Positions 19,648-47,000 of a stretch of DNA of 64,000 bases are shown piece after piece. The DNA comes from Marsupella aquatica (taxonomy: Eukaryota; Plantae; Marchantiophyta): assembly GCA_973895155.1 (NCBI GenBank), contig OZ316891.1:30387112-30451111 (forward strand). The letters run 5' to 3'. Position 1 is the first letter of the stretch. Every line of letters begins with the position of its first letter. Both the position numbers and the translations under genes were made by a program. Below the pieces are notes generated by a model. The model did not search any database and was not told the DNA's origin. It was given only the letters and a program-made list of their open reading frames with translations.

Positions 19648-19950
19648 ATACCCTCGATTATTCTGCGTTAGCTCCCCGCTTCGTCCCATGATGAAGGCTA
19701 GTCCAAGCTTCTTTCGTCAAGAGCTCAACTTCAATCACTATGTATGTTTACACCCTCGATTATTCTGCCTCAGCTCTAAGTTCATCCCAGAAGAAAGCAA
19801 GTCTACATTAACTCTGTCAAGAGCTCAAATTCCATCACTACCGACATTCACACACCGTCGATTACTCTGACTGACCTGTCCGCTCCATCACATGAAGAAA
19901 GCTAGTCTATATTTCTTCTTTGCCAATAGCTCAAATTCCATCTCACCAGC
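19648..19950. repeat. Three degenerate ~100-bp tandem units upstream of DNA-PKcs
   Basis: The recurring ccctcgattattctg...gaa(g/a)gctagtc...agctcaaattccatc motif starts near 19650, 19752 and 19854. Confidence 0.7.
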
Positions 19951-24719: not shown

Positions 24720-27184
24720 TGTGCTATCATACCTGGAGATATGAGTCCATCCATCGTCCAAAGGAAGTGTTATGCCTTATTCATGATAAGATAGATCATT
24801 CAAAGATAACTCTCCCAAGAATGCCCTTCAATCCTAAGCATTGGATGGTGCCCAAAAGTTCCCAATTACTGTCACTGGTATCCTTACTCATGGTCATGGT
24901 CCCAAGGCCATATAGCCCAATATCATGTTGGAGTGTGGTAAGGTGATGTCAACATCACTAGTGGGTCAATTGATTCAATACTAAGGATGTTGGAAAACCC
25001 AAATCCAATGATCAAATAACTTGTGGAGGGGCCAAACTTGACAAGTCTTTTTAAAGAAATCCTTTTTGAGAGAAAAGATATCTTGGAGGCAAGTGTCCTT
25101 AGAGAATTTGAGGATGACATAATTGCCTACATCTCAAGCCTAGGTATTTTACTCACAATCCTTTTATTATTAATAATATAATCTCACACACGTACACTGA
25201 CACTCTACTTTGTGTAGTTGTTGCTCCTCGTAGCCAAGGTTTCATTAATAGGGTGTAAACCGTAAACCCTACATTGGGGTTTAGGGTTTGACTAGGGTTT
25301 TATTTAAAAGCTTTTTGGCTTCTTATCTTGTACGATTTACTCAGTCACAATCCTTTAATATAAGCTTAGTCTACTTTTATGTTATGTAGTTGTTGGCTTT
25401 TCGTAGCAAACTAAGGTTCCATTATGGTCTAAACCCTAAACCTTACATTGGGGTTTAGAGTTTCACTATCTTCTTTTGTATGCATGAAATTCTGGGATTG
25501 TCCTAGGTTACATTGTGAAGCAGCACCTGAGGCACCAAAGTTCAGGCCCATTCCACGAGTATTGAAGTTACAACTGGATAATTGTGCCTCAGACAACAAG
25601 ATCAAATATATGATGACTTATTTGTCATTGTTGACGGCAAGGGAGGTGTTTGAAGAGGTTCATCTTGGTTTTATGGTGGTTGGGCATACTCATGAGGACG
25701 TTGACGGTATGTTCGGGCATTTTTCAGAGTCTATGACGCATAACCCCACATACTCATTGCTTGAGTTAATGTCCTTGTTCATGAGAGCAAGGACACCCAA
25801 TGCAGTCCCCCATTTCCTACAAGAGGTCCCAAATTTCAAAAGCTAGTTTAGCTCCATTCATGTTGAAGGGGCCTGAGGCATTGGTGGGGCATTTAAAACC
25901 CAGGTTGTTTAGGTTCTATGTTCGTCATGATAGTATGCCATGCTTTCCAATACAAAATGAAGTCAACTGATCAAGGATGGTTACCCAAGGAAGGTATTGA
26001 AATGTGGTCATGGAAAGATGACAAAAGCCCTCACATCCCAATTGGGGTGCCCAAACGGCTACTAGTGATGGAGTTGAATATGCTCCCTAAAATGCTGACA
26101 GGGTTGAAGAAGCATGTGTCATTCTTTGAGTTTATTCTAAAGCGAACCACAAAGGAAGAACCAAAGTGACGTTGGACAACTCTCATCAATTATTGGAATG
26201 ACATTGTAAATACTATACAGGGTGAGCAGGTGCAATATGAACCCGAAGGTGCACACAACTTGGAATACAGGTTTTGGCCTTTATCAATATGGAGAGAGCA
26301 CATTCCACCAAAATATCAAAATGTGGCATGTGAGTTGGAGGCAATAGTGGATTATTTGGGACCTGCAAAAGATAAACCTCCTGAGAGTTTTAACCCTAGG
26401 GTTGATGTCGTGAAGGGCTATTATGTGTTGGTACGGCCGGACGACTCAGACGTGAATGTTTAATATCCCGTCCATATGGGGTTAGTTGTTACAGATGTGA
26501 TAGAAGGACCAGTGAATGAACAAAACTTTCTTACTCATGTATGTGGCATTGAGTGGTTTAGACCATTTATGGCAAAGAAGCCACGTGGTCAATCAGACTG
26601 GCAACCATGAGAGCGATGGGCAGATTCTTGGGATAAGAAATGAGAACGTGATCCAACTCCAATATACAAGGAAGCTGAGACAATATATGTTTCCTCTGCC
26701 TTGTGGTGTTTCAAAGCATGCAAAGGACCAGTGACAAGGTTGGTTGGAATTCCAAAGAATGTTGCTGCCAAGGCAAGAGACTATCTCTTGACATGCATAG
26801 CAAGTGAAAAATCCTAGACGGTAATGAAGTTGGTAGTTTAGCACACAGTTTAAAAGGGAACTCAAAATAGTAGTAGCCAGAGAACTCAAGTTTAGACAAG
26901 TCTTATTGTCTAAGGGTGGGTTCCCACCAAGAGTTATTTTCTAAACTACATTTGTTAAATCAAAAGTTAACAGGCGCAGGGTTCCCGCACTAGTAGAAAC
27001 CGGGGCAATTTAGACCAAACCTTATAGGACTAAGGCCACTAAGTCCTTTTTGGCAACCTTAAATGACTCGAAACCATTGCCACGGTTCACATGAACACTA
27101 CAAAAGACTGTGAGTGCTTTTTGGTTTTGGATAAGACTATGAAAAGTACCCTTCTTTGTGAATGTATGAACACTCTAGCACATG

Positions 27185-27835
27185 ATGGGTTGTAGGGTTT
27201 AGTTGTGGGCTTTAATTTGATAATGGGCATATGGGGGGGGGGCACAATTCATTTGACGACCTCTTTACCAACATCCCGCTAACTTGAACACGGACAAACG
27301 GCGTAAATGTTGAAATTCCCTAATTTTGAATATACTCCATAGTGGGTTTGGGGGGGTTTAGGGCTCAAGGGTGGGCCAGTTACATGCGAAGGGTGTGGGG
27401 GTTCACCACTAAAGGGGTTTAGGGGGGTTTATATGCCAAGGGTGGGCCGGTTAGGTCTCAAGGGGGTGGGGGTCAGTAAAGGGGGTTTAGGGTCAGAGAA
27501 CACTCAATTGAAATAGTGATGCAGCGATTTAGGGTAAACGAACAGGGACCGTGGACCCTAACTTGTTTGCTGCCTTGGGAGGATTTGGAGAGCTGGAGGC
27601 AACATGCTTCATTGATCCTGAGCTTGCAAGCGGCGCTCTAAAACGGCCTGTGGCATTGCAAAAATAGTCTGGCCACAGTCGAGTTGTCAAGACATTTAGG
27701 GGGTTTATATGTCAAGGTGTGGGGGTGGCTGAGTTTTCACTAAAGGGGGTTTAGGGGGGGTTTATATGTCAAGGGTGGAGGGTTGAGATGTCAAGGGTGG
27801 GGGGTTTAGGGTTAAGGGGATGGGGGGTTTAGGGA
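27185..27835. repeat. G-rich subterminal region with many TTTAGGG (telobox/telomere-like) motifs
   Basis: Repeated gggggtttaggg and ggggtttatatg(t/c)caaggg modules at about 27350, 27415, 27481, 27765, 27800 and 27822. Confidence 0.8.
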
Positions 27836-28926
27836 CCATTGGATGGAGTCCATCGATCCCCACCATCAAAAAGTCGCATATTGGAAGTTTACTCAGCTGG
27901 GCTATACTTTGAGAGGGCCGAGTAGTCATGACTTAGCACTAGTTTTTTAGGGGCTAGACAAGGCTTGGAGTGTAATTAATTTAGACACTTGAAGTAGAGG
28001 GAATGGGGGCCTGGGGTTAACATGAAACCTGCATATTGATGGTCGAGATCACTCAAGGCAATCTCTTTTCATCCGGATGGCTGAGATCACTCTAGGGGCT
28101 GCCATGTCATAGTAAGGTTGGCGCCAAACGGCTCTTTGCACCCTTTTCACCCTCGCGCCTTTCAGTCGTGTTTTACTTTTCTCACAAAGTATCGAGGCTC
28201 AACGTTGAATGTTGCGGTTAGTGTCTGCCACTCAGCGTTTAGGGCGAGAGGGTCAAGGGGTTTAGCAAGGTTGCGCTGCTGTTTTGCCTCAAGAGTGTGC
28301 AATCAAGGCTTCAATCAGGTCTCCAGGAGCTGCGGGAGCGCTGTGCAAAGTGTTGCGGGAGGATGTGCAATGTGCTGCGGGAGTGCTGTGCAATGTGTTG
28401 TTGCAGGAGTGCTACTGCGGGAGTGCTGCGCGGGAGTCTGAGCTCAGTGGGAGGGTTTAGGTTTGGCTGATCGATGTGCATTTACAATTGTGGATAGTAG
28501 TTTGCATTGGAGTTGCAAGGAGCTCGCCAGAGTTGTGAAGGAGCAGGGTGTGGGAGTTGCGGGCTGCCATCGGCCCTCCTATTTTTCTTTTACTCCCATA
28601 GCGAGCTCCCGTATGAGCTCTTGTGTGAGCTTTGTTCAGCTGCGGTGGGTGCTGAGCTTATTTCCGTCAAGCTCAGTTGTGCTGTGCTGATTTTTGTCTA
28701 ACAAAGCTCGGGGGAGGGTTGCCGGTTGGACGTTGGAGCTGCGCTTGTGATATTTTGGGGTTCGGGCAAAGGGCGGAGGGCGGAGGGCGAAGATCAAGCA
28801 TTTTTGTTTTGCTAACGCTGCGTGGTGGAAACTGGACCTGCGAACTCCTTGTCTATGGTGTTGTGGAGCTGGGCGAGCTGCAACAAGGGACCGAGCCGGG
28901 CGACCTGTGAATTAAGGCCCATCGAT

Positions 28927-29428
28927 CGCTGCTGAAGGTTTGATGTCCAGATTTCTTGCCTGTGAGTCCCCATGTTTGCAGTCTCTGTCCCAATCTCTTG
29001 CGCAGTGCTCGGCGTAGTGATTACACTTACTGTGATTGACCACCTTGCATGATCTACATCTGTGGGCTGGACCCCAAGAAGTAGATTTCGGCGGCTACTT
29101 GCGAAAGGGATTGAAGAGATTGGAGTGCTTGCTCTCTTTGTCCCTCCCCTTGAAATTGTGGGCCTTAAAAAGGTCACTTGGCTTATGTAGTTTTGCTCCC
29201 CTGCGCTATGTCAATGCGCGCATGTCCGCTATGTCAATGCACATTTTTTCCCTCTTCTATGTCAGTCGCCGTTTGCCTATAATTGGACTGCTCATTTGAT
29301 GTCCACTCGTCTGATGTAATGCTTCCCGTTGCCGCTGCTGAAGGTTTGATGTCCAGATTTCTTGCCAAACAAAAGTCCCCATGTTTGCAGTGTCTATCCC
29401 AGTCTCTTGCGCAGTGCTCGGCGTAGTG
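28927..29428. repeat. Dispersed direct duplication (~95 bp) at 28927-29019 and 29333-29428
   Basis: cgctgctgaaggtttgatgtccagatttcttgcc...gcagtgctcggcgtagtg occurs twice. Confidence 0.9.
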
Positions 29429-31087
29429 CCCATGATTCGATAGGGAACTGATTCATGAACTGTGACTACTTTTATGCTCTGCAATGTGAATATGTTGGCA
29501 TTTGCTGCACTTGGTGTTGATAGTTTTTGTTAAAACTTCAATTTAAGTACGTGGGAGACAGACGGGAAGTCGGACGGGGAGGTAGAAGTGCACGGGAGAC
29601 AGACGGGGAGACAGGAGGTAGCGAGCTATTGATTTGCGCCTTACATGACACCGCCCAACATTCACCTGCTACAAGGACTCATCTTGGTGCGCTTTGAGAA
29701 TCTCCGTGCTGCAAGGTGAGACTCTTTCCTGGTCGTGAACTTATATATGCCCTCTCATAGTCTCGTTTAATATTGAGGAATGACTATATGCTTCCGTGAC
29801 ACGGCTCATCTGTCCATTTTTTACTGTGCACGGCTCATCTGTCCATTTTTTATAGCATGATTGACGTCAGCTGTGGCTTAGTCCACCTTCTTGTAACAAA
29901 GCAGGCGGTGATTGGACCAGACCGTGTACTTGGAGTTGCCCCTATCCAGCTGAAGGAGCGTCGAGCACTCTAAGGCAAGAGTTTCTCCTGCATTGTTACC
30001 TGGTTACAAGGTTACTCTAAGGCAAGAGTTTCTCCTGCATTGACAACTTTCCCATGCCACCTTCAATCAGTTTTCCTTTGCACCTTGGCTTGATCATTTC
30101 AAAAAACCTGTCACATTGAGCACGGAATCTATCGCCTAAGTTCAGCCTTTCAGCTTTTTTCCGGACTATCACATAGCGAGTCGGTCGCGCTACCGGAAGT
30201 ACTACCACTTTTACTATATGGTTCATCTCAGTGCCTTTTATGGAATGCTTTCTTGTTCTTCTACTCGGCATGGCATCATCCTGATTGCCCGTCGCTGTGA
30301 CCAGCAACGGAAAGCGTAGACTCGCGTTTGGATTCAAAGTCTAATCCAGAGTGTAAGGCTCTGAGCAGACCATAATAGGAAGCCTGCCTGATTCTCTAGC
30401 CGATCCGACAGAGAGCCATCCTTGCAAAACCTGTTTGAGTGTGTTCCAGTGTTCTAGTGTTCAGCTTTCGAGTGGGTTTTGTTATGATTTGATTTGGTGA
30501 TTGTTTTGGAGTTGTAGCCGTGGTCAAACGCATGTCTATTAAAAACAAATTCATGGAGCTCAGGTTGCTGCTGTATATAAACCGCAACAGGATCCATAAC
30601 TGCCTGCAGTCCCAGCAAATCATACATGCTACAGTCACAGGATAGGAGTTCAAGAAGTCTTCACAGTTTCTCATTTTTGTAGAATCTGAGATGTTGCTGG
30701 CCCAGGAGATGAGTTTCCCTTAAGAGTCAGGGACGTCAGCAGTGTGGGCCATGTAATACAGTTGAGAATGATGGCAAGTATAATTTGTTAATGGGTCCAA
30801 TGCCATGTTTGTGAGCTATTGAGTTGGATAGGAGAAAAAAACCAAAACATTGTCGCAACTGCTTCCAGAACAATCATTCATGGTTAGACTAAGCTCGACT
30901 GAACACCCCTCGCTTGCATGGGGCGGACACAATGCGGAATAGGCTGTCATGGAGTTGTCGAATGGATCTTCAATTTTCATGATAAATGTCCCCGGGCGTC
31001 CGTCCTATGTGTAGATTTTATAGGGGATGATGGGCGAGGATCATCTTTCCCATCTTCCTGAAGCTTTGTCTGCTTTCTGCCACCTCA

Positions 31088-32057
31088 GTGGAGGTTCACT
31101 TGCACAACACGACAACCAGTGAGTTTTCTCTTTGCTGCAACCTGCAAGGTGAGACTTTCGATCTTTCTAGATGAAAAAACAGGATCCAAATATGATTTAT
31201 GTACATGTCCATGGAGAACATGGTTTTATATACATGCTCTTTGTCTCAGGAACTTAGCATCAAATATGTACTATGCACCTTTCATGCTATGTGTATATTG
31301 TGACCTGTAGTTGGAACCAATTTAGTGAGTGGGAGATGATAAGTGCAGGTTGGTTGCTGTGGGCAAGGCAAGTCGACCTCCTACTCGCCTTGCTCATCAA
31401 AGGACGTGAACAGAGGACATCACAACAAAAGCGACATTTATGGTGAGGACCCGCAACGCTGAACATGTGTGGCTTGCACGCAAGGCAGAGATGTTGCGCC
31501 TTGAGTATGTCAGACTGGGGATTCTTCCAGCCCAATCTGCATGGTACTTTGAGTACTCTCACGGTTTGCTTATGGCCATTATTTGCAATTTGCTGCTACT
31601 AATATGTCTCCGACTGAGCAGCATACACCGGAAGTAAGCAATAGTGGAGGTTTAACTGCACATCAACACATCCAGTGAACTACCTCTTTGCTGCTCACTG
31701 GAGGGTGAGACTTTCACTCTTTCTGGATATTGTAGTTTGTAAGCAAGTTGATTAGGAGTGTTTCATGCTATGTTTACATTGTGACCCCTAGCTGGAACCA
31801 ATGGAATGACACAGTGAGTGGGAACTGATAATTTAAGGTTGGTTGTTGTTGGTGAGGCAAGTACAGCTCCTGCTCACCTTGCTGATCGAAGGTGCTTATC
31901 AGAGGACGTGAACACACGACACTCCACAAAAGCAACACTTATGGTGAGGACCCGCAATGCTGAACATGTGCGGCTTGCACGCAAGGCAGAGATGTTGCGC
32001 CTTGAGTATGTCAGACTTGGGATCCTTCCAGCCCAGTCTACATGGTACTTTGAGTAC
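31088..32057. repeat. Internal tandem duplication (31088-31557 and ~31644-32057)
   Basis: Both copies share gtggaggtt...ggtgagactttc and the block encoding MVRTRNAEHVxLARKAEMLRLEYVRLGILPAQSxWYFEY. Confidence 0.9.
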
Positions 32058-32436
32058 CCAGTTGTTGCCAGGAATAACTACGTACAGCCGCCCTGTACCT
32101 GCTTCTCCACCCTTCCCAACATCCTTGGTATTTTTGTCTCTCGTACATGACCCGCCACAAATTAGGGCCCAAGGGTGTGTGCACAGTTGCCAGTATGACT
32201 GTCCTGCCTGTAGGGCTTCTGGCCTAGAGTTGGATGACCGTTCTCTTGGATGTCGGTTTTTCATAGAGCACAATGTATCATCTGGAACCACTCGCCATCC
32301 TGCAGTGTGCCTGGCGATGTCACTTGTCCTGCCCTCCCAGACCCCACCACCGGTCACTTTGGTGTCTACACATGTTTGGATCACACGCTGTAGAAGACCA
32401 CTTGTCACACCGCATGCACAGACCAGAGACCATTGA
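31818..32436 (+). pseudogene. Possible orphan cargo gene with Cys-rich motifs (two overlapping frames, probable frameshift near 32110)
   Basis: Frame 1 ...WYFEYPVVARNNYVQPPCTC; frame 2 ...GCVHSCQYDCPACRASG...; the N-terminal part is duplicated upstream. No family recognised. Confidence 0.35.
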
Positions 32437-33062
32437 CCTATAACTTAACACTTTGACTTGAACAGAGAGGATATTTACTTAAGATTTTGAATTATGAGCA
32501 ATTTTGGGTCCAGGGTTTACGGTCAACAGTACATAACTTATCCTATTATGGCTGCACTAAGTACAATATCCTAATTTAAGAGGCTAGCAAGCTCACTTAA
32601 AAGTCTCCTTTCAAAGACTGGAATTAATGGGCCATGTGATAACCTGGAAAAAGTGATTTATGCCTAACTTATTTGTCTCATTCACTATCATAGCCTATTT
32701 AGGATGTATAAATTACAACCCTGATCACACTGCTTGATACCAATCCTGTTCAAAAAATGCCTGTTTTACATGTCACGACTGTTATATGTGATTCAAATGC
32801 ATTAAATCTTGTTGCAGATCTCCTTTGGTGAATCATAGCCACAAAATTGAGGTGTAGGTGGAGCTATTGTACGAGGGGATCAGTTTTTAGTGTGGGCTCA
32901 ACAAACCAAAAAGTATGTCTACTCTGCACATGTGTGTGAACATTTCATTGCAGTAGCAATTGCCACTCTAGTCTATATGCTACACTGTACTTTTTGTACA
33001 CTGCACTAAATTGTATTGTCTGTGCACTCTACTAAATTGTACTATCTGTCTCAGGCGTAGGC

Positions 33063-33743
33063 ATGGCACGCCCTAAAATCCAAGCCAAGAAGCGGGGGAC
33101 AGAGGTGAGCAACATAGGTATAGTTGGGCCAGATGGTAGTAACTTCTCCGCAAGTTAGATTTTCCAGAAGGCAGCTCATTGTTGTGCCATTTGTGACGAT
33201 GGTGGTGGCTTAGCCATATGTGAGGGCCCTTGCATGAGGCATTTCCACCTCAACCCGGAGTCTGACCTTGCTGCAGAAAACAACTGTCCAGGGGTGGGCC
33301 TCCCGTCAGCACACCAGGGAGGCTGGATGTGCACTGATTGTTTGGAGAAGCAGGCTAAGTGTGCACAGTGTGGGAAGTTGGGGTCTTATGAGGGCTCTGT
33401 TGATGCTCCACCACTTGTTAGGAAATACCCTGACAGATATTGTGTGAGGTTCTTTTGTTTTTCATGTTTGCCCGATCTTGCCACAGCTTGCCCACTTCAT
33501 AAGTGCAAGGCATGTGGTCAGCACGATGAAGATTTCTGGGTGGACATAGTCCACTGTGTTAGGTGTCCCACCATGTGGCACTTTCATTGTTTGAAGGAGC
33601 GTCAAGCAGAAGGCTATGCTTGTGACAGACACATCTATCATCACTCTGCACATGGTGTTGATCGATGGATCTTCTATTGTCATCGCCATGCCATAGATCC
33701 TACTTTGCACACTCCCATGAGAGATCACATTTCTTGGCTTTGA
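33063..33743 (+). CDS. Stand-alone EDM2-type composite PHD-finger protein (CACTA cargo)
   Basis: CAICDDGGGLAICEGPCMRHFH...CTDC..CAQCGKLGS..CPLHKCKAC..CVRCPTMWHFHCL..IFYCHRHAIDPTLHTPMRDHISW parallels the EDM2 PHD region as I recall it (CAICDNGG..CEGxCLRSFH..CPLHKC..CRRCP..IYCxEHEIDxELxTPxRDH). An in-frame TAG at 33156 is either removed by a 63-nt GT-AG intron (33105-33167) or is a nonsense mutation. Confidence 0.85.
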
Positions 33744-34341
33744 ACCTGAATAATGTACATGCATAGTGCACCTGATGTGGATACCTTGGAGATTGCAGAC
33801 ATTCCAATTTTGAGAAGAAGGACCTCTGTAGGAGAGGATGCTTAGGCAACAAGTACCCTAAGTTCATTACTTGTTCCTGGGTACATGCCTTCAAAAACTC
33901 CCCTTAAGCCTTCTAGGAACTTTTTTAACTCTGCAATCATTTTGATCACGACTTACATGACACTGCTTAAATTAAATCAGGATTTCTCATTATGAGCATA
34001 TAAGTTACAAGGCTATTTAATTTGCGAGAATTCCCTTAAAGTGTACCAACATTTTCTATTCTCATTGAATGTCTGCCCATTTACAACATCTGTATGTGGC
34101 ATCACAAAACAATTGCACTTGTCACCTTCAATATTGTCAAGGCACATATTCAAACTATGAGGTGCATGCTTGCAGGTGTCTAGTACGTTTGTCCCAATAT
34201 TTCTCCCGTTTGGAATCGGAGCAGAGACTCACCAGACGACTGGATTGGACCAAGTTATAAACGCAGCATTTTAAGGGCCCTCTGATTATCAGGTGAACGC
34301 ATTATCTTCCGGTCTGCAGTGATTAGGTGGCCCGTGTGTAC

Positions 34342-35106
34342 ATGGCCTCTAGGAAACGTACAAAGGTTGACCACCCGCCTCTGTTGGTTGGAATCAAAGC
34401 CATTTTGATTCCTGGCCACTATGGGTTCACCCAAGTGAGTTGGCCAATCGTACAAAAACGATTCTCAGAGTTCCATGGGACTGAAGTCAAGGATATCACT
34501 CCACAGACTACACATGTTGTTGCGGGGACATGGCTGGATGTGATGAACAACTGGTCATGGTCCTTCATTGATTCTGCCATTACCAACCAAGGTCTAAAAG
34601 TAGTTGAAGTCTCTTGGCTGACCGATTCTGTTAAACATAGGTGTGTACAGAGTACTGAGCAATATGAGTTGTGGGAGAGTGAGGAGGCCACTGCAGAGGC
34701 TTTGGCTGAAAAGGAAGCCTATGAAGCAGCGGCAGAGAAACCCAACTTTGCTTCTGTCCAATATGGACCTGTTGTCAACATAGGACACCATCCTATGCGT
34801 GCAGATGCTATATTGAATGAGCATGGCAAGGAGAGAAATACCATTATGAAGGGGTTCAGTGTGGTATTTACAGAAGAAGGAATTGGGGAGACTAAGTGCA
34901 GATTGTACAAGTCTATAGTTGTTGAGCTAGGTGGGACAGTGGAGGAGAGTCTAACAGAAACCTCCACTCATGTTGTAGGTCTGTCATACATGAAAATATG
35001 CAGAAAATTCTTTAAGACAACAGTGCGTGATTTTGTCATGAACAACAATCTTTGGGTGCTTTCCCCTGATTGGCTTCTGGAATCAGCAGCTAGAGGGAAG
35101 CGATAG
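34342..35106 (+). CDS. Tandem-BRCT protein (CACTA cargo)
   Basis: Two BRCT signatures: TTHVV...VVEVSWLTDSVKHRCVQSTEQYEL and LGGTVEESLTETSTHVV...LSPDWLLESAARGKR. The TAG at 35104 is probably premature, as the frame continues NAWDFDIF to 35190. An NLS-like RKRTK lies at the N-terminus. Confidence 0.82.
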   Translation: MASRKRTKVDHPPLLVGIKAILIPGHYGFTQVSWPIVQKRFSEFHGTEVKDITPQTTHVVAGTWLDVMNNWSWSFIDSAITNQGLKVVEVSWLTDSVKHRCVQSTEQYELWESEEATAEALAEKEAYEAAAEKPNFASVQYGPVVNIGHHPMRADAILNEHGKERNTIMKGFSVVFTEEGIGETKCRLYKSIVVELGGTVEESLTETSTHVVGLSYMKICRKFFKTTVRDFVMNNNLWVLSPDWLLESAARGKR

Positions 35107-35366
35107 AATGCTTGGGACTTTGATATTTTTGAGGCCTGGCCCTCCAAGATTCAGCGGAGATGTATGCTTAGCAAAGGTGGGAGAGAGTGAGGAGTAGGAG
35201 TCCCTCATATTTTTGTATAAATCACAATTTTGTAATAAATGTGATCCTTGAACTAACTCATCTTGTCATGGTTGGTCGCAGTTGAAGTGATTGTTGTTTC
35301 CTGCTGCGTGGGGTGTGACTGTGAATCTACTTGCTGGGCTCTGTTTGGCTGAAGACTTTGGTGGGT

Positions 35367-35900
35367 ATGCTGCCTCTTCCAGACCGTCAGGCCCTATGTA
35401 GGGTCCTCCTACGGGTTGCATCGTGCATGGCTACTGCTTGGGCTTACTTGTGTGGATTGGTAACCAGACAGAGTGTAGCTCCATCCGAGATAATGCCTGC
35501 AGACCTTGGATGTGTTGTGAATGCTGTGGTGAATGAGGATGCACAGTCGGAAGAGGACATTTACTTTTCAGCAGATGAGTTAGACAAGCACGATGCTGTA
35601 GGTGGTTCCTTGTTGCCTGATTTGGCAGATGATATAGTTCTTACACATGTCTGGCCGAGGGTTCTTGTGGTGTCTGGCGCACAAGATATCTGCAAATATA
35701 GACTAATTAGTACCCAGTGGAGGGACTTGGTAGCAACATGTGCACCATGGAGGGCATTGCTGCCACTGCTTGTAGGCACGGATCGAAGACCACCATGGCA
35801 TGAGCAGGGTTTAGACCTTGATGACTTAATGTACATGCCTGAGTACCTCAGGGCTGAGTGGCATCGACAACAGGATTGGTATCCGTATTTGATGTGGTAG
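35367..35900 (+). CDS. Small F-box-like protein (CACTA cargo)
   Basis: SLLPDLADDIVLTHVWPRV...KYRLISTQWRDLV (~35607-35735) fits the plant F-box pattern LLPxLPDD..R+...R.V...WR.LV. No kelch or LRR domain follows. Start codon uncertain. Confidence 0.65.
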   Translation: MLPLPDRQALCRVLLRVASCMATAWAYLCGLVTRQSVAPSEIMPADLGCVVNAVVNEDAQSEEDIYFSADELDKHDAVGGSLLPDLADDIVLTHVWPRVLVVSGAQDICKYRLISTQWRDLVATCAPWRALLPLLVGTDRRPPWHEQGLDLDDLMYMPEYLRAEWHRQQDWYPYLMW

Positions 35901-36226
35901 TAAGATGAGGACATCTCACACCGGTCTCGCACCTGGCACCTGTGTCTATGACTATACATGATTGGACTCTGATATGGTCATGGATGTACGTGCAGAGGCA
36001 GTACATGTGAGGACAGCGGAGGAGTTGACACCCTCAAACATTTAGGAATTTTGTCTCATTCACTTGAGAATAGGTACATGACTCAGGCACCTATATTTTT
36101 TGTTTTTTTGTTTTTTTGGAACGTTACGTATTTTGGCAAGTACAGTCGGGGGTGAAATCCTTAACAGGAAGTGTATTTTTCACTTGCATAATAAAATGAC
36201 AGGGTGCTGAGTGCGTGTGTATAGTG

Positions 36227-39200
36227 ATGGCTCCAAGGTTGCCTCTTCACAACCCATTTAGGATTAGGCATCATGATTCTAAATTGTGGATGCGTGAACA
36301 AGCCCGGGCCGCCCAAGGTAGGAGTAGGAGGATGAGATGCCCATGCACACAGTGCCAAGGATTCAAGTCGTTGAGTTTGAACACTGTGCACCTTCACCTG
36401 CTGCGGCATGAAAGGCACCCTCGGTGGAGGGTTTGGAATGTACCAACAGAAGAAGACTCCTCTGATGAAGAGTGGAGAGCTGACTTTGTGGATTCTAATA
36501 CAACTAGGCATAGAGACTACGTAGAGCAGGACATAGACTGTGCAGAGGATGGTCCTGGGGTCCAACATGAGAACGTGGATGACCAAGATGGAGATGGAGA
36601 GGCAGTCACTGAGGACGGTGGGATGGATGTCCCAAGAATGGTTCAAGAGATTTTTGAAGACCTTGATGCTTTTTACGACACAGTGGAATCAGAAGAGGAC
36701 AATGAACCGCAGCCACACATTGGTGACGGCCAAGCTGAACCTGACTTTGACATTGGGGAAGGTGCAGCAGAGAGGGAGTGGGTGTTTGGGGGCCCAAAAC
36801 ACATCAAAGAAGCTTGCATTCCTATCTATGAGGGGTCGAACTGCTCCAAGCTGGGTTTTGTCATGTTGTTGTTGAACATCTGTGGCAATCACAATGTTCC
36901 CAATATATTTGTGACAGAGTTGTTGACCTTCCTGCGCCGAAATGTGTTACCAGATGGTAATTCAATTCCAAAAAATATGTACGAGGCTAGGAAATTGATG
37001 TCTAACCTTGGGCTGAACTATGTGTCTATTGACGCATGCCCTGATGGGTGTGTTCTCTTTCGCAAAGAGCATGCAGATAAATTGACATGCCCTCATTGTG
37101 GTAAGCACAGGTACAAGAATGTAGGGAAATGTACACACCCTACCAAGGTTCTTCGTCATTTTCCTCTCATTCCTAGACTACAACGTCTGTTTAGATGCCC
37201 TGCCATTTCCAAGCTGATGACATGGACTCCTGATAACAAGAGCAGTGATGGCCTGCAGCGTCATATTGGAGATTCCAACCATTGGAAATTTGTTGATGAG
37301 AGGTGGCCACAGTTTGCTGCAGAGAAGCGGAACTTTAGATTTGGTCTATCACTGGATGGAGTAAACCCATTTCGAGACAAAAACAACCGTTATTCATGTT
37401 GGCCGGTTACGCTGCTAAATTACAACCTTCCCCATGGATGACTACAAAGAGGTTTTTTGTCATGATGGTGCTGTTAATCCCTGGACCAGCTTCTGTGACC
37501 GAGCAATTCATAGATATCATGTTGGCTCCAGCAGTGGAAGAGTGGAAGACTTTGTGGATAGAAGGGGTGTTAACCCATGATGTTCTGAAGGGGCTTCTTC
37601 GACCCAGCCCCTTTAGACTGCATGCAATTTGTTTGCTGGATATAGCAGATTACCCAGGCCATGGCATCATATCTGGACGAGTGACAAAGGGCTATGTGGG
37701 GTGCACACCATGTGGGAAAAATGTGACAAGTGAGTGGTCGCATGCCCTGCACAGTATGAAATTTCAGGGGCATAGAAGGTATCTGCCTGTTGATCATCCT
37801 TACAGGCACACACGGTCTCAAATTGCACACTTCAACAACAAAACAGAGCTTCGTGGCCCACCACAAAGGGTCACCAGAGAGCAAGTCCTGAGGTGGGCAG
37901 CCAGGAAGGCTGATTGGGACAAGAGAAGTGCCACTGATCGAGAACCTGAGGATCCAGTGGTGAAACACGGTGTGAAAAGACAGACCTTGATGGACTTGGA
38001 GTACTGGAGGGTAATGTACTTAGCCTCCAGCCCCTGTATGATTGCAATTTTAGATTGGAGCAATGGTGGATTGATGTTGGTTACAATCCTCCTATGTGGT
38101 TAATTAGTGTTTCTGTTGTTGAATTCTTTGCTTTGTGGAGTGCAGGAATTCGAGCCCAGCAAACACAATGTGGACGTCATGCACATTGAGAAAAATATTT
38201 GTGAGAGCTTGCTGAAGTTCTTGTCGGGTGAGAAAGATACAGGAGTAGTTCGAGCTGATATGCAACAGAAGGGGATTCGCCCTCACCTTTGGTTGAAGCC
38301 CCATGCAAGCAATCCCAATGTACTTCTCAAGTTCCAAGCTCCCTATGTGTGCACACAGGATGAATGGAAGACATTCTTGTATAGATTGAGTTGTCTGAAA
38401 GTGCCCTCTGGCTATGCTGGTGCCTTCAAGAAGCATATTACAAAGAATAAACTTGGCAGTATGAAAACACATGACTACCATGTGTTGATGCAGCACATTC
38501 TGCCCCTATGCCTCAGAGGTCTCATGCAGAAACTAGTCCGTAATGTCATTCTTCGACTGTGCAATGTATTTCGCCGTATATGTGTGAAAGTGTGGGATCC
38601 CCAAGGATTGGAGCAGTTGAAGCAGGATGCTGCTTATGTCCTCTATGACTTGGAGATATACTTCCCCCCTGCTTTCTTTGATGTTATGACTCATCTCCTA
38701 ATCCATGTGGTAGAAGAGCTAGGGCAGTATGGGCCAGTCAGTACCAGATGGATGTACCCTATGGAGCGATACATGAAGTTGTTGAAAGGTCATGTGAGAA
38801 CATACTACAGGCCAGAGGCTTCCATGGCATTGGGGTACATTAAGGATGAGATGTTGGGATTCCTAACAGAGTACATGGCTGGGTCTGGTGAAGCTATGAC
38901 AAGAGTTTGGAAATCTGGTGAAGATGATGGAGTGAGTGGCGAGGTTGTTGAAGGTGTGGGACGTGCTGTTCAGCTGCCTGTTGCGATTCGAGACAAGGCT
39001 CATTCATATGTGCTGGCAAATACAGAGCCTATGCAACCATGGTGGAGGTGAGTGATTGAATTGACTTGCCTTTGTTGTGATGCTTCTTGTCTGTTCCAAG
39101 GGTGATCTTAGGTTGTCATGTGTTGTTTAGACCTAACTATGCCTGTACCTCATATTGCAGGGAATATGATATGCAAAAAGCTGCACACTCTGGGCAGCAG

Positions 39201-39920
39201 GATCCCTTCCCACAGTTCGAGCAGTGGATTCGGGTGACAATTCGAGAGCATAGTAGACATCACCCAGATATGGAGAAGGATTTGTATCTTCTATCTGTGC
39301 CACCACGATTGTCTATTCTGACCTACAAACGGATGAGAGCTTATGGAAATCATTATCGAGTGAGGGATGAGCAGGGTGACCATTGTGTATCATATGATTG
39401 TGGTTTGATTTCTGTGTTTGAGCAGAGAACCTCTGAAGAACAGAGGGGGTGGATGAAGATGGGTTACGTGGGGGAGTTGACCGACATTTGGGTGTTGAAT
39501 TATGGTAACACAAGTGTCCCAGTGATATTGATGAAGGGATCATGGGTGAAATCAGAGTGGCAGAGACCAAGGGCCACCATGAAGCGTGATCATGATGGGT
39601 TCTTGTTGGCCAATTTTAGGTCCAGAGTACCAGAATGGTCTGAGCCTTTTGTTTTCCCTAGCCAAGTTGAACAGGCTTTCTTTGCAGATGTGGAGGAGTC
39701 ACATGGCTGGAGGGTGGTATGCCATAGCCAAGCACGGAACAGGCGGATGGATGGAAGTAAAGTAGAGTTCAGTTTGGATGACCATGCTGCATTCGAGCAT
39801 CCTAGTCATGAGACTGTACTTCCAACTCGGGCAGGGACTGACTACATCCCCTTAACATTGAGAGAGACATATGATGAACCTGGGCAAATGGAATATGATG
39901 AGGTTGATGATTTGCAATAG
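36227..39920 (+). pseudogene. CACTA TnpD/Tnp2 transposase (transposase-associated CPC domain, Transposase_21, DUF4218- and DUF4216-like), frameshifted
   Basis: RCPCTQC, IDACPDGCVLF, LRHFPLIPRLQRLF, LSLDGVNPF, YNLP/PW, DVMHIEKN, FPPAFFDVMTHL, WMYPMERYM, EPFVFPSQVEQAFF. Introns 38011-38145 and 39048-39160. A 1-bp frameshift lies at ~37430. Confidence 0.95.
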
Positions 39921-40097
39921 GCAACAGCTGGCGATTGGCAAGTATGAGGTTGAGGATGACTACCTGCACAGAGTCACAGAACGGGAATTGCTGCCTGGAA
40001 TGATGTTTAGGATAGTTGGATATGCATAAAATTGATTGATACTTTGAATTTAGTGTGCTGATTCTCCCTGTTTGGTTGTGGGTGCTGTGCAGAAGCT

Positions 40098-43000
40098 ATG
40101 GGGGAAGAGGGTGATGACATGGAGACAGACATGGGGCTTGGAGAGTGGGGTGAAGAGGAAAGATTGGATATGGATGGAGACCCAGATGCAGGGGGCTCAC
40201 AGAAAAATGCACCTGTGCAAGATGCACAGGGCCCTCATCAAGTCCCAGGTAGGTGGGCAGCTAGAGAGAAATCACATAATCCATACCCTAGAAGGAGCCA
40301 GAGTTATTGGCAAGGGACGCCTGATAATTATGATGATGACTATGATGGAGCAGAAGATGGATGGGATGAATATGAACACCCAGAGCGTGGTAGAGACGGG
40401 TACAGAGGGCAATGGAAAGGTGAGGAGGATGATTGGACAAGTAAGTGCCTTGTGCTAGTGATTTTGTGATGGTAGTAGAGATTTAGCTCAATATGCACTT
40501 ATCTGATGTGTAGCTAGGGCAAAGAGTTTATCTTACAGGTCCATGAGTGTGGCATGTACCTGTTGGTATGCAGACTCTGATTGGGACAATCACGAAAACA
40601 ACAAAGGCCATCCACGTTCAGATAGGAGGCAATCATTCACAGGCGAGAGAAACGCCCCTAATTCATCAAGACAAAGCAATAGGACAGGTGGTCCAGAACC
40701 ATCTATGCGCCAAGGGAGAGGTAACTTGGTCATTGCAGAATTGCTCTGAAGTCCACTGTATATTTGGCAGCGGGATTTATGATTCATACTTACCTAATGT
40801 AAGTGACTGTAAATGGATCCTGTAAATGTGCAGGGACTCCAGGGAGGTTTGGACAATGCAATCCAGGCCGTGGGGGGAGATCAGGCCGTGGAGGGACCCC
40901 AGGCCGTGGGGGGACACCAGGCCGTGGAGGGACACCTAGTAGCGCTTCAGGGAGTACCAAGGTAGGAGACAGTAACAAATTTGGTAAAGTAGAAGTGAAT
41001 TCCGAAGGTTGGATAACTCCCACATGTGATGGTAAGAACCGTTGACATTCTGACCTAAGAGGAGAAGTATTGCGTTGGTTAGATTTGAGCATTACAGAGT
41101 TTAGGAGTCAGAACAAAGCTGATTGGGCTGCTATCTGCAAGGACATTCTTGAACGGTGGGAGTATGTTGGTAATGATGGTAAGGGCCCAGTTGAAGATTG
41201 CATATCAGATTATGCAATGAGGATTTTGAAACAAGAGAGGCATAGGTTGAAAAGGATGTGGATAGACAATGGTTCTAACAGGAGAATGCCACCACCCCCA
41301 TCATTGGAACTGGATCAATGGACACGGTTAATCAAAGGGTTCATGTCGGAGGCTGGACAGAGCAAGAGTGAACTGATGTCAAATGCTCGAGGCAAAGTGA
41401 AACACCTTTCACAGGCTGGGAGAGGAAGTTATGCTCCAGTGAAAGAACAATTGGTAAGGCAGTGACATGCCTGATAGTAAGCCTCAAACTTATCATCTTG
41501 CTACCATTATTACATTTTCATTGACAATCAACACTTGGTTTCATTCATATGTATGTTGATGTGGACTGCAGAAGAAATTGACAGGTGAAGAACCATCAGC
41601 ACAAGAAGTGAGAGAGGAGTTCATGAAACAAAGGAGTGAGGTGACAAGTGTAACTTCCAAACAGGTGATTATGTTGTAATTCTGTATGTTCTGTGACTAT
41701 TTGGCCTTGAGCATCAGAAAGAAATGTAGTAGGAAGTAAGCAACCAGTTCTTGGGGACAGTTATCTGAGATATGTAAGCTGTGTTATGACAGGGAACTGT
41801 TACAACTCTCACAGAGATGTGTGAACGGTTGAAGTCATTAGAGTGTGGACTCCCTCGAGTGGAAAGTAAATTGGCTGATCGTTTAGATATTGTGGAGGCA
41901 TCTGTAGCGAACCTTCTTGCATCAGTGGAATCTAATTTCAAGCTTGTGATTGAAAAATTGGGTGGTTCCCAACCAAACAATGAGGGCAACATTGTACAAA
42001 GTGTGCCCTTGTTAACAAAAAAGGGAATTGGCAAATCTGACACAGGTATGGAAATGACACCGGCCCATTGTTCATTGTGTCCTATGTTCAAATGTCAGAA
42101 GTAAGTTTTCATGAATTGAGTGAATGGTTTGAATGCAGGAAGAGTGGAGGCAGAGAAGGACCCTGTAATCAGTAAGCAGAAGGGCAAGAAGGTTGCTGAG
42201 ACAGGTAACCTACTATGATCCAGTACATTACATTTGAAAAGTGCATGGAGTTTTGTGAAGCTTAAGCCGGTTGGAGGTAATCTTTTCTGTAAGAACTGGT
42301 TGGATGAACTGGGATCTGAAGTGACATCATGATTGATGTATCAGGTGATTCAAAGAGCAATAATGAAGAAGATGTGTCCAGTGCCTCAGTGACCATAGCC
42401 AAGGAGGTATCAGGTAAGCTGATGCTTTAAATTCCTCTATATGAATGTTGAGCAACAATTCAGTGGTTAATAGATTCAACCTGAATATTGTGGTGTGTTT
42501 ATTGATCAACAGAAGCAGACATGGAGCATATGGCAATGGCAAAGAAGGGGAAGAAGGCTGTTCATAATGGTAAGGAGATAGTGACAACTTTGTGGTTGGT
42601 GACATGTACATTTAGCACATGTGATGAGTGATTGACTTATGTTGGACATGACACTGAATTGTAGTTGATGCAGAGTTGACAGACTCTCAACCAAGTGGGA
42701 GTAGGGTGAAGCGACGTCGAAACTTGGGAGCAACATTGGATGCAAGTAAGATTGTAGATGCTTCAATTGAAGCAAGTACAATGTTGGCAGATACTGAGAT
42801 GATGTCGCAGGGAAATCCTGCTACACAATCAGAAGTGTCAAATATGGATGCAGATTCTTTGAAGAAGAGTGTAGCCAATTCTCGATCACCAGCACAAAAC
42901 ACTCGTGCCAAAGTCATGACTCGCAACCAAGGTATGAATAATGTCATGTATAAGCCACCCAGGAAAGCCAAGAAAAACAGCCAGGTTAAGGTGGAGGTGA

Positions 43001-43269
43001 TAGCCACAGCAGAGCCAGTCCATAATCTTCTATCATGGGAGGATGACTCGCAGGTATGTGTGGGTACAGGCATTTTGCGACCGGATCATGCAAAATTCCA
43101 TGGCAAAGTGGTCCCAGATGACCATGTAGTAGTGTTGTTGACTACAGTGATTGTATCTGATTGTAATTTGCCATTTCCGAATAGAGACGATGATCCACCT
43201 CAGGAAATAATTGCAGATGCAGTAGGATCTCTTGTGCTCTGGCCATCAGAGTGTGTTAGTCTGCAGTGA
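40098..43269 (+). pseudogene. CACTA TnpA-like multi-exon gene (Ptta/En/Spm-type core, RGG repeats, C-terminal DAVGSLVLWP domain)
   Basis: LKQERHRLKR..PPP..DQWTRLI..KSELMSNARGK..GRGSY core; coiled-coil exon; C-terminal FHGK..LPFP..IADAVGSLVLWP; 18-bp PGRGGT repeats at ~40863-40936; in-frame TGA at 41043. Confidence 0.8.
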
Positions 43270-43759
43270 CTGAATGCAAGTGTAGATAGCATCATGTGAA
43301 TTGTGTCACATTTTGACATTGCCTTGGAAAGATCCAAGAAATATCTGTACCAATTTTTCCATTTGGTAAAGAGGAGGAAGGAGACGTTGTGTGTGACATT
43401 GATATTTCTGAATTCTGTATGTATGAAACAAGTGATTGATGTCAAACTATGGCTCTATGGTGATTGTCTATGATACTTGAATCTATTTTATCATTTCAGT
43501 ATTAGTGTGTATGGTATAGAGGAATACTTTGTGACCTTCTTTGTAGTCTGTTTGAATCTGTGAATTCATATTAGTGTACATGGTATAGAAGATGGCTTTC
43601 TGAAACTATGTATTCTAATGTTAACATGATAAATGGTGAACTTATAGAGTGAGTTCATTCCAAGTACACAATAAAACATGAATGCAATATGTTATTTGTG
43701 CACAAGAGTGGGTTCATTCCAAGTAGTATAGTGGGGTCTTCATCACTCATATCCAGTTG

Positions 43760-44060
43760 ACATGAAAGACTTATACATACCCCACAAAGTATATTTAAAG
43801 ACTACCCTCCATAACCTTTTTAGTCGTTCCCAACGACTCATCATCGCAGCCCATAAAAGACTGAAAATGACTCACCAAAGCTACCCACACAAAGACTAAA
43901 ATAGACTGAAAATCCAGTCTATTAAACGACTTATAAACCAGTTCTATAAAGGACTCAGTTGATTATAGTAACAAAACATACGACTCGCAGTCCTATAAAG
44001 GACTAGAGTCCTTCCCAGTCGTTTCCAAGTCCTATACGGTACTGAATAGTCGTTTAATGG
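43760..44060. repeat. CACTA right subterminal repeats (putative TnpA-binding GACT/AGTC motifs)
   Basis: More than 15 aaagact/acgact/ggact motifs or their complements; a sparser set occurs at 27020-27140. Confidence 0.7.
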
Positions 44061-47000
44061 GGTCTAAATACCCCCCGGTTTCTACTAGTGCCGCCGGCTC
44101 AACTGGCTGGCTTAGTTAAAGGCTTAGTTAAAATAGCTAGTTAAAATACATAACTATCCTTACTTAACTTTTTGGTAACAATTTTCACCCTGTCTCAATG
44201 TAACATTCCTTGTCGTGGCGGGGTGAACCAGCCGGGGAGTGTCGTGCAGGGGAGTGTTCGGGTGGTAGTGTGGAAGAAGGAGCTCCCGGGAGTAAGTAGA
44301 TGTCTGACGTTGTGCTTTTGAATGAGGATGCTTGTTGAGAATTCATGTTTTTGCTGTTGTCCCTAGTGAACTGCCAGAAGCTCATAGCGGCAAAGTACTT
44401 AGAACCAGATGACCCTTACCTGACAGCAAAGATCGGACAAGGGAATTTTTGATAGTTGAACTTAGTTTCTCTCGGTAAGGAGAAGTGGAATTCAGAAAGA
44501 TCGAGGCATTAGCTGTAAGTTGATAACTGGAGTTGTGCTCAATTGACTTTGGGACTCGCACACCTGCTTGGAATTAAAGACGTATAGCAGCATGGATTCC
44601 TCGGCCAATGTGCCTATAGAACAATCTTACAAGCGGGCCCCGAGAATCAACTGAGTGTCCTTCTGAGTGTCGTAGCTTTGAACATTGTGTAAGCTTGAAG
44701 ATTCTGAATTTGCAATGGCCAATGCTCCCGCTGCTACCTTTTCCATTCCTAACTCTCAACAGATCATGATAATATGCACACTATCGAGTAGAAGCTATTG
44801 GTGGCATTGTAAAGGGTAATAGAAGCATCCGCAAAGGAACAGTTTCCTAGAAACATGTCTCCTTGATAGGGGTAGCATAATTGTTATATAATAGTGCCAA
44901 AATCCTACAAAATCAATTCAATTGTCCTCCAGGCCCACCTCTGTACTTTAATGGCAGCACAAAAAGTCATTCTACTTATAATAATCCAAGCCAATCGGAA
45001 GCTTCAGTCCTTTTTCAACTACGGGAAGGAATATCACCTCCTGTGTTTAAAACCATTCATTGGTACTTTTGAATAAGTTTACATTTGTTTACAACCCATC
45101 AGGCAACTGACAGGCTTTCAATCTGTTTTGTATTTTAAAATTCTGCTCTGAGTTAGTTTTGTTTATGGAAGTTATCAGCCCAAGTTTGAATACAGAAGGA
45201 GGGCATTTTTCTTCTCGTAAAGCACTCTGCAATACATTCTATAGAAAGACTACTACGAGAGAACCGATGAGCTAGACACGGATGACAAGGTCAGTTGTCA
45301 CTTGTACCTTTAAAGGAGGCAGAGCAGCGAAATCATACATTGACTAGAGGAGGGAAATTGAAACGAGTCGGCAGAATATACCAACTATGACCCTCCAATT
45401 GTGCTTTGCCTAGGCAGAGCCTATGAAAGCGGTAGCAGACTCCGGAACAAAAAGCGGCATCAGAGAAGGGCCCTCTCGGTACTCGCGTGGAACAGAGTAG
45501 AGCAGATCAAACACAACGAAAGCAGATCGACGGACTCTAAATTGTCACTAGGTTAGCTGCACGAGAGTCCACACCATAGGATGCAAACGTCCAATCCCAA
45601 AAACCGGAGACCCGGACAGCAAGTTTGGGGACTTCGACCGGATGGCAGGCAGCATTGTTGGACCGCAGAGGTCTGAACCAGAGCTCACTTCAATGCCTTG
45701 CACCTCCGTTTGCGAGCAACATAGCACACTCTTTGTCACTCTGCAATTAAGCTGGATTTTTCAATGCCATCAGAGGGGTACCAGTTCTCTCAGAGGCAGT
45801 GGAGGGGTACCAAAGGAGGATATGCGGGAGAGTGAGCACTGAGTAATTCGCGAATTTACCACACTTTTGACCCTACGTCAAAAGTTTTTGATCTTGAGAC
45901 TAGTAACCAAGTTAGGTCAAAAACCGGTTGGAACCCTTCGTTAATAGTTAACTTTTGAAAAGTTAACTATTCAGTATTTCATGATAGTACCTCCTAGTAA
46001 CTCTAACTATCCCTAACAATGGGTGGGACCCTACCCTAAGTTAGTTAGTTGGTTAGTTTATTTAAGATATAATATTAGTTAGTGGGGCCTTAGTTAGTTA
46101 AGGCATGATATTATTGACATTCAAATGAATGTCGAGTAGACATTGTAATATACAATAATCCTATTAATAAATAATAATTATACACCTTCAAGTGAACTAA
46201 ACTTTCAATGATTTCTGATTTTATATGAAGTTAGTATGGTTCCATGTCTGATTAAGTCAAAGCAATAGGAACTAACTAAAGGGTGGTACTATAATTGTAG
46301 GTCACGCGCCCTGGTGCATGTCAGTCTTTGTTGTATTCAACAGACCCTGTAGTAATTAAATAGAAAATTGCTCGAGGATCTCACTATATGGATGCCTCCC
46401 CATCCCCTGCGACATTTTTAGGCCTCAAACCCCCTAAAATGTAAGAATTTAAAAAAAATTCAACCTCTATAAAGTTAGGATATTCTTGGAATATTCCAAA
46501 ATTTGGGTTAGAAAGACCTTAATGTTCTTATAAATCTCAAAATTGAATTTAAAAGACCCTATTGTTCTTCTGTAAAAATTCTTAAGTCTTCTTTTCAAAC
46601 CAATAAAATGACCTTGTCCTTTATCGCACGTGATGTGCTATTTTTGTGCAAGTGAAACCCCTAAGGATAATTGAGACAATTAATGATAGTTTAATTAAGG
46701 ACTTGTGCATGGATCAAGAGGTACTTGATGTCATTTAGTGATGCATTTTTGTAAAGATCTTGCAACAAAACATTCAAGGTTTTTGAGTATCCCAACAAAT
46801 GTTGAAGAGGTTGATCATTCATTAACTAATAATATTTAGATAAAACTGGAATTAATCTAATACTTCAGTATTCTTTAAATTGGGGTTTACAAGGTGTTTT
46901 CTTAGAAATAAACAGTCTCGGAGGAGACCAAGGTTGCGCCAATAATAAACCGTGACTCATTGACAGGGCCCACTCTTGATTTTAGCTATGGCTTCCTGGG

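Follow-up and report, generated by a model that had tools for sequence, protein, structure and literature searches.

A liverwort CACTA transposon carries a stand-alone EDM2-type PHD gene with a histone H3-like N-terminal peptide

The CACTA element

The window, the whole 64,000-nucleotide stretch of Marsupella aquatica DNA analysed here, contains a complete CACTA (En/Spm) transposon of 17,103 bp (positions 26988–44090, plus strand), recognized by its inverted ends, target duplication, subterminal 8-mers and Pfam domains. Its termini are 18-bp perfect inverted ends beginning CACTA at 26988 and 44090, flanked by a 3-bp target duplication (CCG at 26985–26987 and 44091–44093), and the subterminal 8-mers are common to both ends; the chance expectation of such an end pair in the window is about 2e-6. 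The PHD gene that is our subject had been predicted to be transposon-encoded, and these termini place it inside a transposon. Encoded on the same strand are, in order, the PHD gene, a twin-BRCT gene, an ORF with a weak F-box-like stretch, the transposase TnpD and a TnpA-like region, with the PHD gene upstream.

The twin-BRCT accessory gene (34342–35190, plus strand; Pfam BRCT E 9.8e-14) has only one close relative among the proteins found, P0169, at 60% identity; a likeness to DNA polymerase lambda was not borne out, the matches being weak ones to BRCA1. Its premature TAG at 35104 is private to this copy, the base being C (a Gln codon) in all aligned depth of four of four sequencing runs; this call, like that for the Tyr codon below, was made among 40 of the 309 differences. 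The following ORF (35325–35900, plus strand) is an uncertain F-box candidate, with a Pfam F-box match below the cut-off (E 0.082). TnpD (36227–39920, plus strand) contains Transpos_assoc, Transposase_21 (E 9.6e-33), DUF4218 (E 2e-25) and DUF4216. A frameshift in a run of C near 37430, either real or a read error, would deprive this copy of the intact transposase by which an autonomous element is recognized. The multi-exon TnpA-like region (about 40060–43270, plus strand) has a sub-cut-off match to Transposase_24 (E 0.006 at 41046–41465), its splice-like structure being read from the sequence.

Three further features lie upstream of the PHD gene. Between 31087 and 32150 is an internal duplication of about 500 bp (78–94% alike) with a short frame that has no Pfam match and may be a further accessory exon. 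On the minus strand at 30017–30340, also inside the CACTA element, is a frame of 107 codons that starts with Met, encodes a basic product and matches nothing in Pfam. The interval 32707–33062 has a TATA-like site at 32707 and intron-like stretches ahead of the PHD start codon; the last acceptor is probably at 33060, because position 33054 is T in nearly all aligned depth.

The CACTA element is itself nested within an outer element (19948–49086) with inverted ends of about 950 bp (96–99% alike) and a DUF7869 protein (E 2.8e-28); it may be of a Sola-like superfamily. The nested elements start about 600 bp upstream of the first coding exon of a DNA-PKcs gene (1–19350, minus strand; Pfam CC1-2, CC3, CC5 and N-terminal domains, one open stretch of 4.2 kb), and beside their start are three repeats of about 102 bp (19642–19942). 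A Copia-type retrotransposon with terminal repeats of about 215 bp (93% alike) occupies 56962–62946 on the minus strand.

Four public sequencing runs (X1, X2, X3 and X5) contain 40–66% of the sampled words from the window, as DNA-like contigs that span spacers and genes alike and whose depth is not a copy count. Because these contigs cover spacers as well as genes and hold many variants (3201 aligned records in X1), the CACTA element belongs to a multi-copy family. The window copy is young, since the six main contigs of X2 differ from it at only 10 of about 1600 bases. CG depletion in the PHD gene (0.27) matches that of the transposase genes (0.26–0.31; host exon, 0.54) and thus fits long residence in the element.

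The PHD gene

The stand-alone PHD gene (33063–33743, plus strand) comprises an H3-like N-terminal peptide, a linker, a helix motif and an EDM2-type three-finger module. Its frame opens with an ATG at 33063 and runs for 31 codons to an in-frame TAG (33156–33158) that interrupts this copy; a 191-codon open frame (33168–33740) follows, with the C-terminal end IFYCHRHAIDPTLHTPMRDHISWL and a stop codon at 33741–33743. In tblastn searches, relatives align from 33063 to 33740, straight across the TAG.

Finger 1 (33183–33341) is of the C4-H-C3 type with all eight ligands present, and finger 3 (33504–33743 together with its tail) is of the C4-H-C2-H type; both have Pfam matches below the cut-off, to PHD-1st_NSD (E 2.3e-4) and PHDvar_NSD (E 4.2e-5), respectively. 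Following finger 3 is the EDM2-type tail YC..H.ID..L.TP.RDH and then the stop. Finger 2 (33360–33500) is distinguished in the whole family by a His-to-Cys swap at ligand 5 and by a deletion of about 20 residues between ligands 6 and 7. The original prediction had described this shortening as lying in the linker between fingers 2 and 3; it lies instead inside finger 2, and as it is common to the whole family, decay is ruled out as its cause.

None of the 24 zinc-ligand columns (eight for each finger) is lost in more than one of 18 full-length relatives, and 23 of the 24 ligands are present in the window copy. The exception is Tyr87 at ligand 3 of finger 2 (TAC, 33426–33428), a Cys in all 18 full-length relatives, where position 33427 is G in all aligned depth of four of four runs. 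The suggestion that this Tyr reflects recent G>A decay is thereby upheld, and the loss of the ligand has likely impaired the window copy of the protein. With Tyr87, the BRCT TAG and the TnpD frameshift, the window copy is decaying; the family itself is not shown to be.

The stop after the module, to which the original prediction had also drawn attention, is a family trait: 16 of the 17 members in which the DH-I-S motif was found end 1–9 residues beyond it, and one ends 20 residues beyond. By Pfam, the product has no RFD domain, and it has neither the methyltransferase-like ELP domain nor the long C-terminus; P0053, by comparison, runs about 860 residues further. Predicted models are moderately confident (pLDDT 78 and 76) and give weak matches to PHD tandems, and a search of a viral fold library gave no match at E ≤ 0.001.

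Kinship with EDM2

A sequence search against 1.84 billion representatives returned 218 proteins at E ≤ 0.001, confirming that the C/H pattern first noticed in the window is real. Among the best 150 of these, short unnamed proteins come first, followed by long EDM2-like ones. The best matches outside the family are EDM2 or EDM2-like (RFD plus PHD) proteins at 60–93 bits, as against 16 bits for NSD2 and AIRE; the named ones comprise an EDM2-like protein of Aristolochia, liverwort EDM2-like proteins and lycophyte proteins, and an RFD domain is present in 12 of the 30 long matches scanned. Over the module, identity is 32–33% to the Aristolochia protein and to a liverwort protein, and the tail after finger 3 is common to the family and to EDM2-like proteins. 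With a profile of the family, a liverwort protein scores 146 bits, other EDM2-like proteins 113–127 bits and three outliers 76–91 bits, one of them a Chara protein that in the alignment has no EDM2-type tail. As far as sequence comparison reaches, these scores show that the module is kin to EDM2, as originally predicted, and not a generic PHD module, an identity that 16 bits to AIRE and NSD2 rules out. The PHD protein is by its domain content not a member of the EDM2 family, because it is without the domains which that family needs. No EDM2 match was found among the sequences of solved structures. The transposons and homologues of the window mark its host as a plant, and the best host-type matches point to one that is likely outside the seed plants.

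Grouping with the window copy are about 34 short proteins (fragments and near-duplicates counted in), stand-alone proteins of about 220 residues with 31–84% identity. These bear out the isolated, PHD-only architecture that had been predicted. Their grouping as one family has support of 100/99 (10 members in the careful tree). The CACTA context is seen in the window copy alone, and the approximately 34 relatives sit on short contigs without neighbours. All that DNA-level scans for relatives turned up was weak and unrelated (L001, from metagenome contigs, with P0168 as the query, and L002, from viral contigs).

Nesting of the family among seed-plant EDM2s is rejected (AU test, p 0.021). Placements with the liverwort-type clade, in which the module lies near the C-terminus (p 0.47), with the Marchantia and Riccia long forms (p 0.28), with P0072 (p 0.26) or as sister to all seed-plant EDM2s (p 0.066) are all retained, and the liverwort-type clade is also the best scorer with the family profile. 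To this clade belong P0012, P0016, P0018 and P0072, with the module near the C-terminus, three of which begin M-A-R-V. Short EDM2-like proteins with the whole module and no other domain also exist outside the family; 13 are under 400 residues, among them P0047, P0051, P0056, P0059, P0065, P0098, P0110 and P0144. In a tree built after removal of 12 partial rows out of 157 and of 11 near-duplicates, such proteins are nested among seed-plant EDM2s.

Two features ahead of finger 1 set the family apart. The acidic lead-in is lost (the final 10 residues contain on average 1.1 D/E, whereas the mean for 131 host-type proteins is 4.0), and a motif F/W-S/T-x-x-E-x-x-Q is present in 26 of 31 family members and in none of the 131 host-type proteins. 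The motif is predicted to form a short helix, and a helix is found at residues 30–33 in the predicted model of P0001.

The existence of a separate stand-alone family with 31–84% identity, in which 24 ligand columns are kept, argues that the gene has been maintained and is not passive cargo. Recent capture of a fragment is ruled out by the same ligand columns and by the 32–33% identity to host-type proteins.

The N-terminal peptide

Directly after the start Met of the window copy is the peptide ARPKIQAKK (33066–33092, plus strand), an instance of the family pattern [AST]-R-x-K-x-x-[AS]-x-[KR]. Its register is that of A1, R2, K4, A7 and K9 of histone H3. The core [AST]R.K occurs in 23 of 27 family N-termini (mean 2.1 and maximum 8 in 5000 shuffles) and the full pattern in 17 of 27 (maximum 2 in 5000 shuffles), the pattern having been found after looking and the shuffles ignoring the relatedness of the sequences; among 143 non-family N-termini it does not occur. 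MAFFT aligns the peptide across the family unprompted, and on its columns the majority residues match H3 at positions 1, 2, 4, 7 and 9. Of 22,680 permutations, 7 fit as well as H3 residues 1–9 or better; when only the non-anchor columns are considered, 7 of 360 do so.

Conservation of the peptide equals that of the fingers, with a mean identity of 0.47 for each and 0.10 for the linker (14 rows), which is variable and 9–25 residues long. On sequence grounds this shows long purifying selection on the fingers and the peptide alike. The likeness to H3 is incomplete: Pro is the commonest residue at position 3 (9 of 23), 5 of 23 members retain R8, and T6 and S10 are not conserved. The peptide stands directly after Met in 10 of 23 members, the window copy included, and further residues precede it in 13. 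A relaxed form of the pattern lies near the start of P0072, a short protein of the liverwort-type clade.

In the AlphaFold model of P0001, β-bridges are placed at residues 2 and 6–7 with low confidence (pLDDT 47 for residues 1–10), and a complex prediction of residues 2–31 with residues 36–226, run without alignments, scored 0.01 and carries no verdict on such a contact. The N-terminal 30 residues of the window copy have no match among solved sequences at E 10. What is looked for in a histone mimic, a conserved peptide in H3 register, is thus found here, the pattern being recognized post hoc.

The in-frame TAG and the 63-nucleotide stretch

The TAG lies within a 63-nucleotide stretch (33105–33167, plus strand) that has GT..AG ends, stays in frame and is a candidate young intron in the close copies, with a GT donor, a branch-like site at 33137–33143 and in-frame acceptors ending at 33158 and 33167. 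Overlapping its end is a remnant of the family motif F/W-S/T-x-x-E-x-x-Q (33144–33167), in which the TAG falls on the E/Q column. Distant relatives read this stretch as coding, open from the start Met. In the TAG column, 18 of the 22 that were counted carry Glu, 3 carry Gln and 1 carries Lys, and five others that the counting pattern missed also have Glu.

The original prediction would have been undercut by a TAG fixed and unspliced in all family copies. The close copies share the TAG, with no variant at 33156–33158 at 8% or more in X1, X2 and X5, and it is spanned by two X2 contigs of differing sequence; in the distant relatives, Glu or Gln stands in its place. Read-through of the stop was considered and set aside, its context being without the leaky motif. 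The five sequencing runs compared consist of DNA-like contigs, in which the lack of a GT..AG joint over 33105–33167 carries no weight on splicing.

Several observations point to an intron. The branch sequence is canonical in most close copies (C at 33139 in 75%, 47% and 74% of depth), and the chance of such a sequence in 25 positions is 0.002–0.02, the site having been noticed after the fact. All eight variable places lie inside the 63-nucleotide stretch (p 0.058). Variants among the close copies are silent in 10 of 17 cases in the coding flanks and in 1 of 9 in the stretch (Fisher p 0.036), for a small set in which the flank counts were made by eye from loose ends and pre-filtered rows.

Against an intron are its short length and modest U content (29% T, compared with 33–41% in four other intron-like stretches of the window), and splicing would take out, along with most of the linker, the helix motif that the family conserves. 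For fission yeasts, PMC3629103 lists 59 putative intronizations in which splice signals had changed, of which transcripts supported one and disproved 50. On balance, we regard removal of 33105–33158 or 33105–33167 by splicing in the close subfamily as somewhat favoured. Only by such splicing would this subfamily make the PHD protein, and the intron, if real, is on comparison with the coding relatives recent.

Proposed function

Part of the original prediction was that a PHD-only protein might act as a decoy or mimic that shields or processes the transcripts of the element. The decoy idea survives in changed form through the conserved H3-like peptide, which had been overlooked; processing of transcripts in the manner of the AAE (ASI1-AIPP1-EDM2) complex is unsupported, because the protein has no part that binds RNA and none with demonstrated binding to AIPP1, and the RFD domain, the C-terminal parts and the acidic stretch are missing. 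For want of these same parts, the H3K9me2 specificity of EDM2 is not transferable to the family.

We tentatively prefer, at slightly less than even odds, a reading in which the protein is a transposon-encoded mimic of the H3 tail joined to an EDM2-type reader, likely nuclear, that weakens host silencing of the element. The module would go back to an ancient capture of an early gene of the EDM2-like type, with loss of the other domains of EDM2 and gain of the N-terminal peptide. Its fingers may bind H3 tails on the chromatin of the element, and the marks they read may differ from those of EDM2, given the loss of the acidic lead-in. Alternatively, the fingers may bind the protein's own peptide through the linker of 9–25 residues, as an on/off switch. 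Once freed, the peptide could divert the H3K4 and H3K9 writers and readers of the host (SUVH-type methyltransferases, chromomethylase and EDM2) by posing as their ligand or substrate, with weakened silencing of the element as the outcome. More speculatively, and with somewhat lower confidence, this CACTA family may long have encoded a two-part weapon, an H3(1–9) mimic tethered to an EDM2-derived reader, beside the twin-BRCT protein; histone mimicry would then be a means of anti-silencing, and one subfamily would have turned a coding part of the linker into an intron.

The protein might instead be a reader only, whose fingers compete with EDM2 and ELP1 for H3 tails; the peptide would then be a patch for nuclear import or DNA contact, and its likeness to H3 fortuitous. 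EDM2 and ELP1 repress Mu1 in Arabidopsis, as reported in PMC3632883, so a competitor could help an element. The N-terminus is rich in Lys and Arg, as is typical of nuclear-import signals, and the Pro at position 3 (9 of 23) and the residues preceding the pattern (13 of 23) also fit a chance likeness. What makes this unlikely is that the spacing of R2, K4, A7 and K9 is fixed family-wide and conserved as well as the fingers, which exceeds the usual need of an import signal; moreover, the neighbouring BRCT gene starts basic but without the pattern.

Rather less likely still is that the genes form a kit for targeting and repair, in which the PHD protein would guide the transposition complex towards chromatin with particular marks, while the BRCT and F-box-like products would handle breaks or remove host proteins. 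The three genes stand head to tail before TnpD and have similar depth in run X2 (main contigs 1648–1978), and targeting of this kind has precedents in the chromodomains of chromovirus integrases and the PHD of RAG2. Among the best 150 of the 218 representatives, however, there is no fusion to a transposase at any length, and targeting alone leaves the H3-like peptide unexplained.

We also think it improbable that the gene is a dead passenger, functional in ancestors but inactivated by the TAG at 33156 in a close subfamily that nonetheless spread. The position of the TAG on a conserved Glu/Gln column, its presence without variants at 8% or more in X1, X2 and X5, and the BRCT stop and TnpD frameshift of the same copy would all follow from such a history; against it are the variants of the close copies, mostly silent in the flanks yet rarely so in the 63-nucleotide stretch (a small, pre-filtered set), the canonical branch sequence of most close copies and a PHD frame free of indels among 12 of the 25 indels.

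A host paralogue of a poorly sampled plant lineage, recently captured as a Pack-CACTA-type copy, could be imagined from the 13 short EDM2-like proteins outside the family, but is very improbable given the transposase-like CG depletion, the many divergent copies within single runs (3201 records in X1), the many frameshifted relatives and the absence of an annotated plant gene name in all 22 family or BRCT look-ups.

Comparison with known systems

Arabidopsis EDM2 and ELP1 have, like the PHD protein, a linked set of three atypical fingers, followed by the same tail at the C-terminal side. EDM2 was pulled down with H3K9me1, H3K9me2 and H3K9me3 peptides and not with unmodified H3 (PMC6208443), acts in the AAE complex (PMC7472560, PMC9292364, PMC7529245) and affects transposons in both directions (PMC3632883); AAE is described as recruiting SUVH6 through ASI1 in a self-reinforcing H3K9me2 loop (PMC9910501). 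The EDM2 and ELP proteins have a methyltransferase-like ELP domain and a long C-terminus (PMC7529245), whereas the transposon-borne PHD protein has no RFD, methyltransferase-like or other C-terminal part. In place of the acidic lead-in it has the H3-like peptide and the helix motif; its finger 2 differs by the His-to-Cys swap and the deletion of about 20 residues, and its family is not nested among seed-plant EDM2s.

NSD1, NSD2 and NSD3 have the same finger subtypes by Pfam (below the cut-off). Their PHD-C5HCH tandems are the nearest local folds, in weak matches that cover part of the model (Foldseek probability 0.94–1.00, TM by target 0.56–0.63; VIA Z 4.7, r.m.s.d. 2.6, 75 aligned), and by sequence the PHD protein differs, at only 16 bits.

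Pack-CACTA elements likewise hold host-derived sequence at the 5' side, upstream of the transposase (PMC8978399, PMC1947982), and large multi-ORF CACTAs are on record (PMC6431247). The PHD gene differs in being complete, with a start and a stop of its own, in its identity of 32–33% to host-type proteins and in belonging to a deep, conserved family. Literature searches aimed at such genes rather than at histone mimicry gave no description of a CACTA element with a PHD gene of EDM2 type or with a BRCT gene; the words PHD, EDM2 and BRCT are absent from the main text of PMC13547354, and PHD and BRCT from the portion of the preprint bioRxiv 10.64898/2026.08.24.746577 consulted.

Similar in principle are VANC of VANDAL elements and the NDX-B domain of En/Spm TnpA, which, as far as the sources consulted describe them, are accessory products of DNA transposons, separately encoded and built from a heterochromatin factor of the host (PMC13547354, PMC6719617, bioRxiv 10.64898/2026.08.24.746577), reuse host chromatin folds (PMC13547354) and have, like the PHD protein, a candidate anti-silencing role. 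They bind DNA sequence-specifically, whereas the PHD protein combines histone-reader fingers with a histone-like peptide; no Pfam match to the VANC-like family was found in the window. The known counter-silencing transposon proteins of plants, VANC and TnpA, recognize DNA sequence. Reading or imitating the histone tail, if it occurs here, would be a different route, which hits the loop of H3K9me2 and DNA methylation itself and comes close to viral practice.

The influenza NS1 protein reportedly has an H3K4-like tail and is said to be a viral histone mimic. Like mimics of this type, the PHD protein presents a short H3-register peptide on a parasite protein; it differs in belonging to a plant DNA transposon, in spanning both K4 and K9 and in being fused to a reader module. 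Finally, these proteins represent a compact, naturally occurring form of the EDM2 module, which has no solved structure, and the 63-nucleotide stretch provides a candidate case, open to experiment, of coding sequence becoming an intron.
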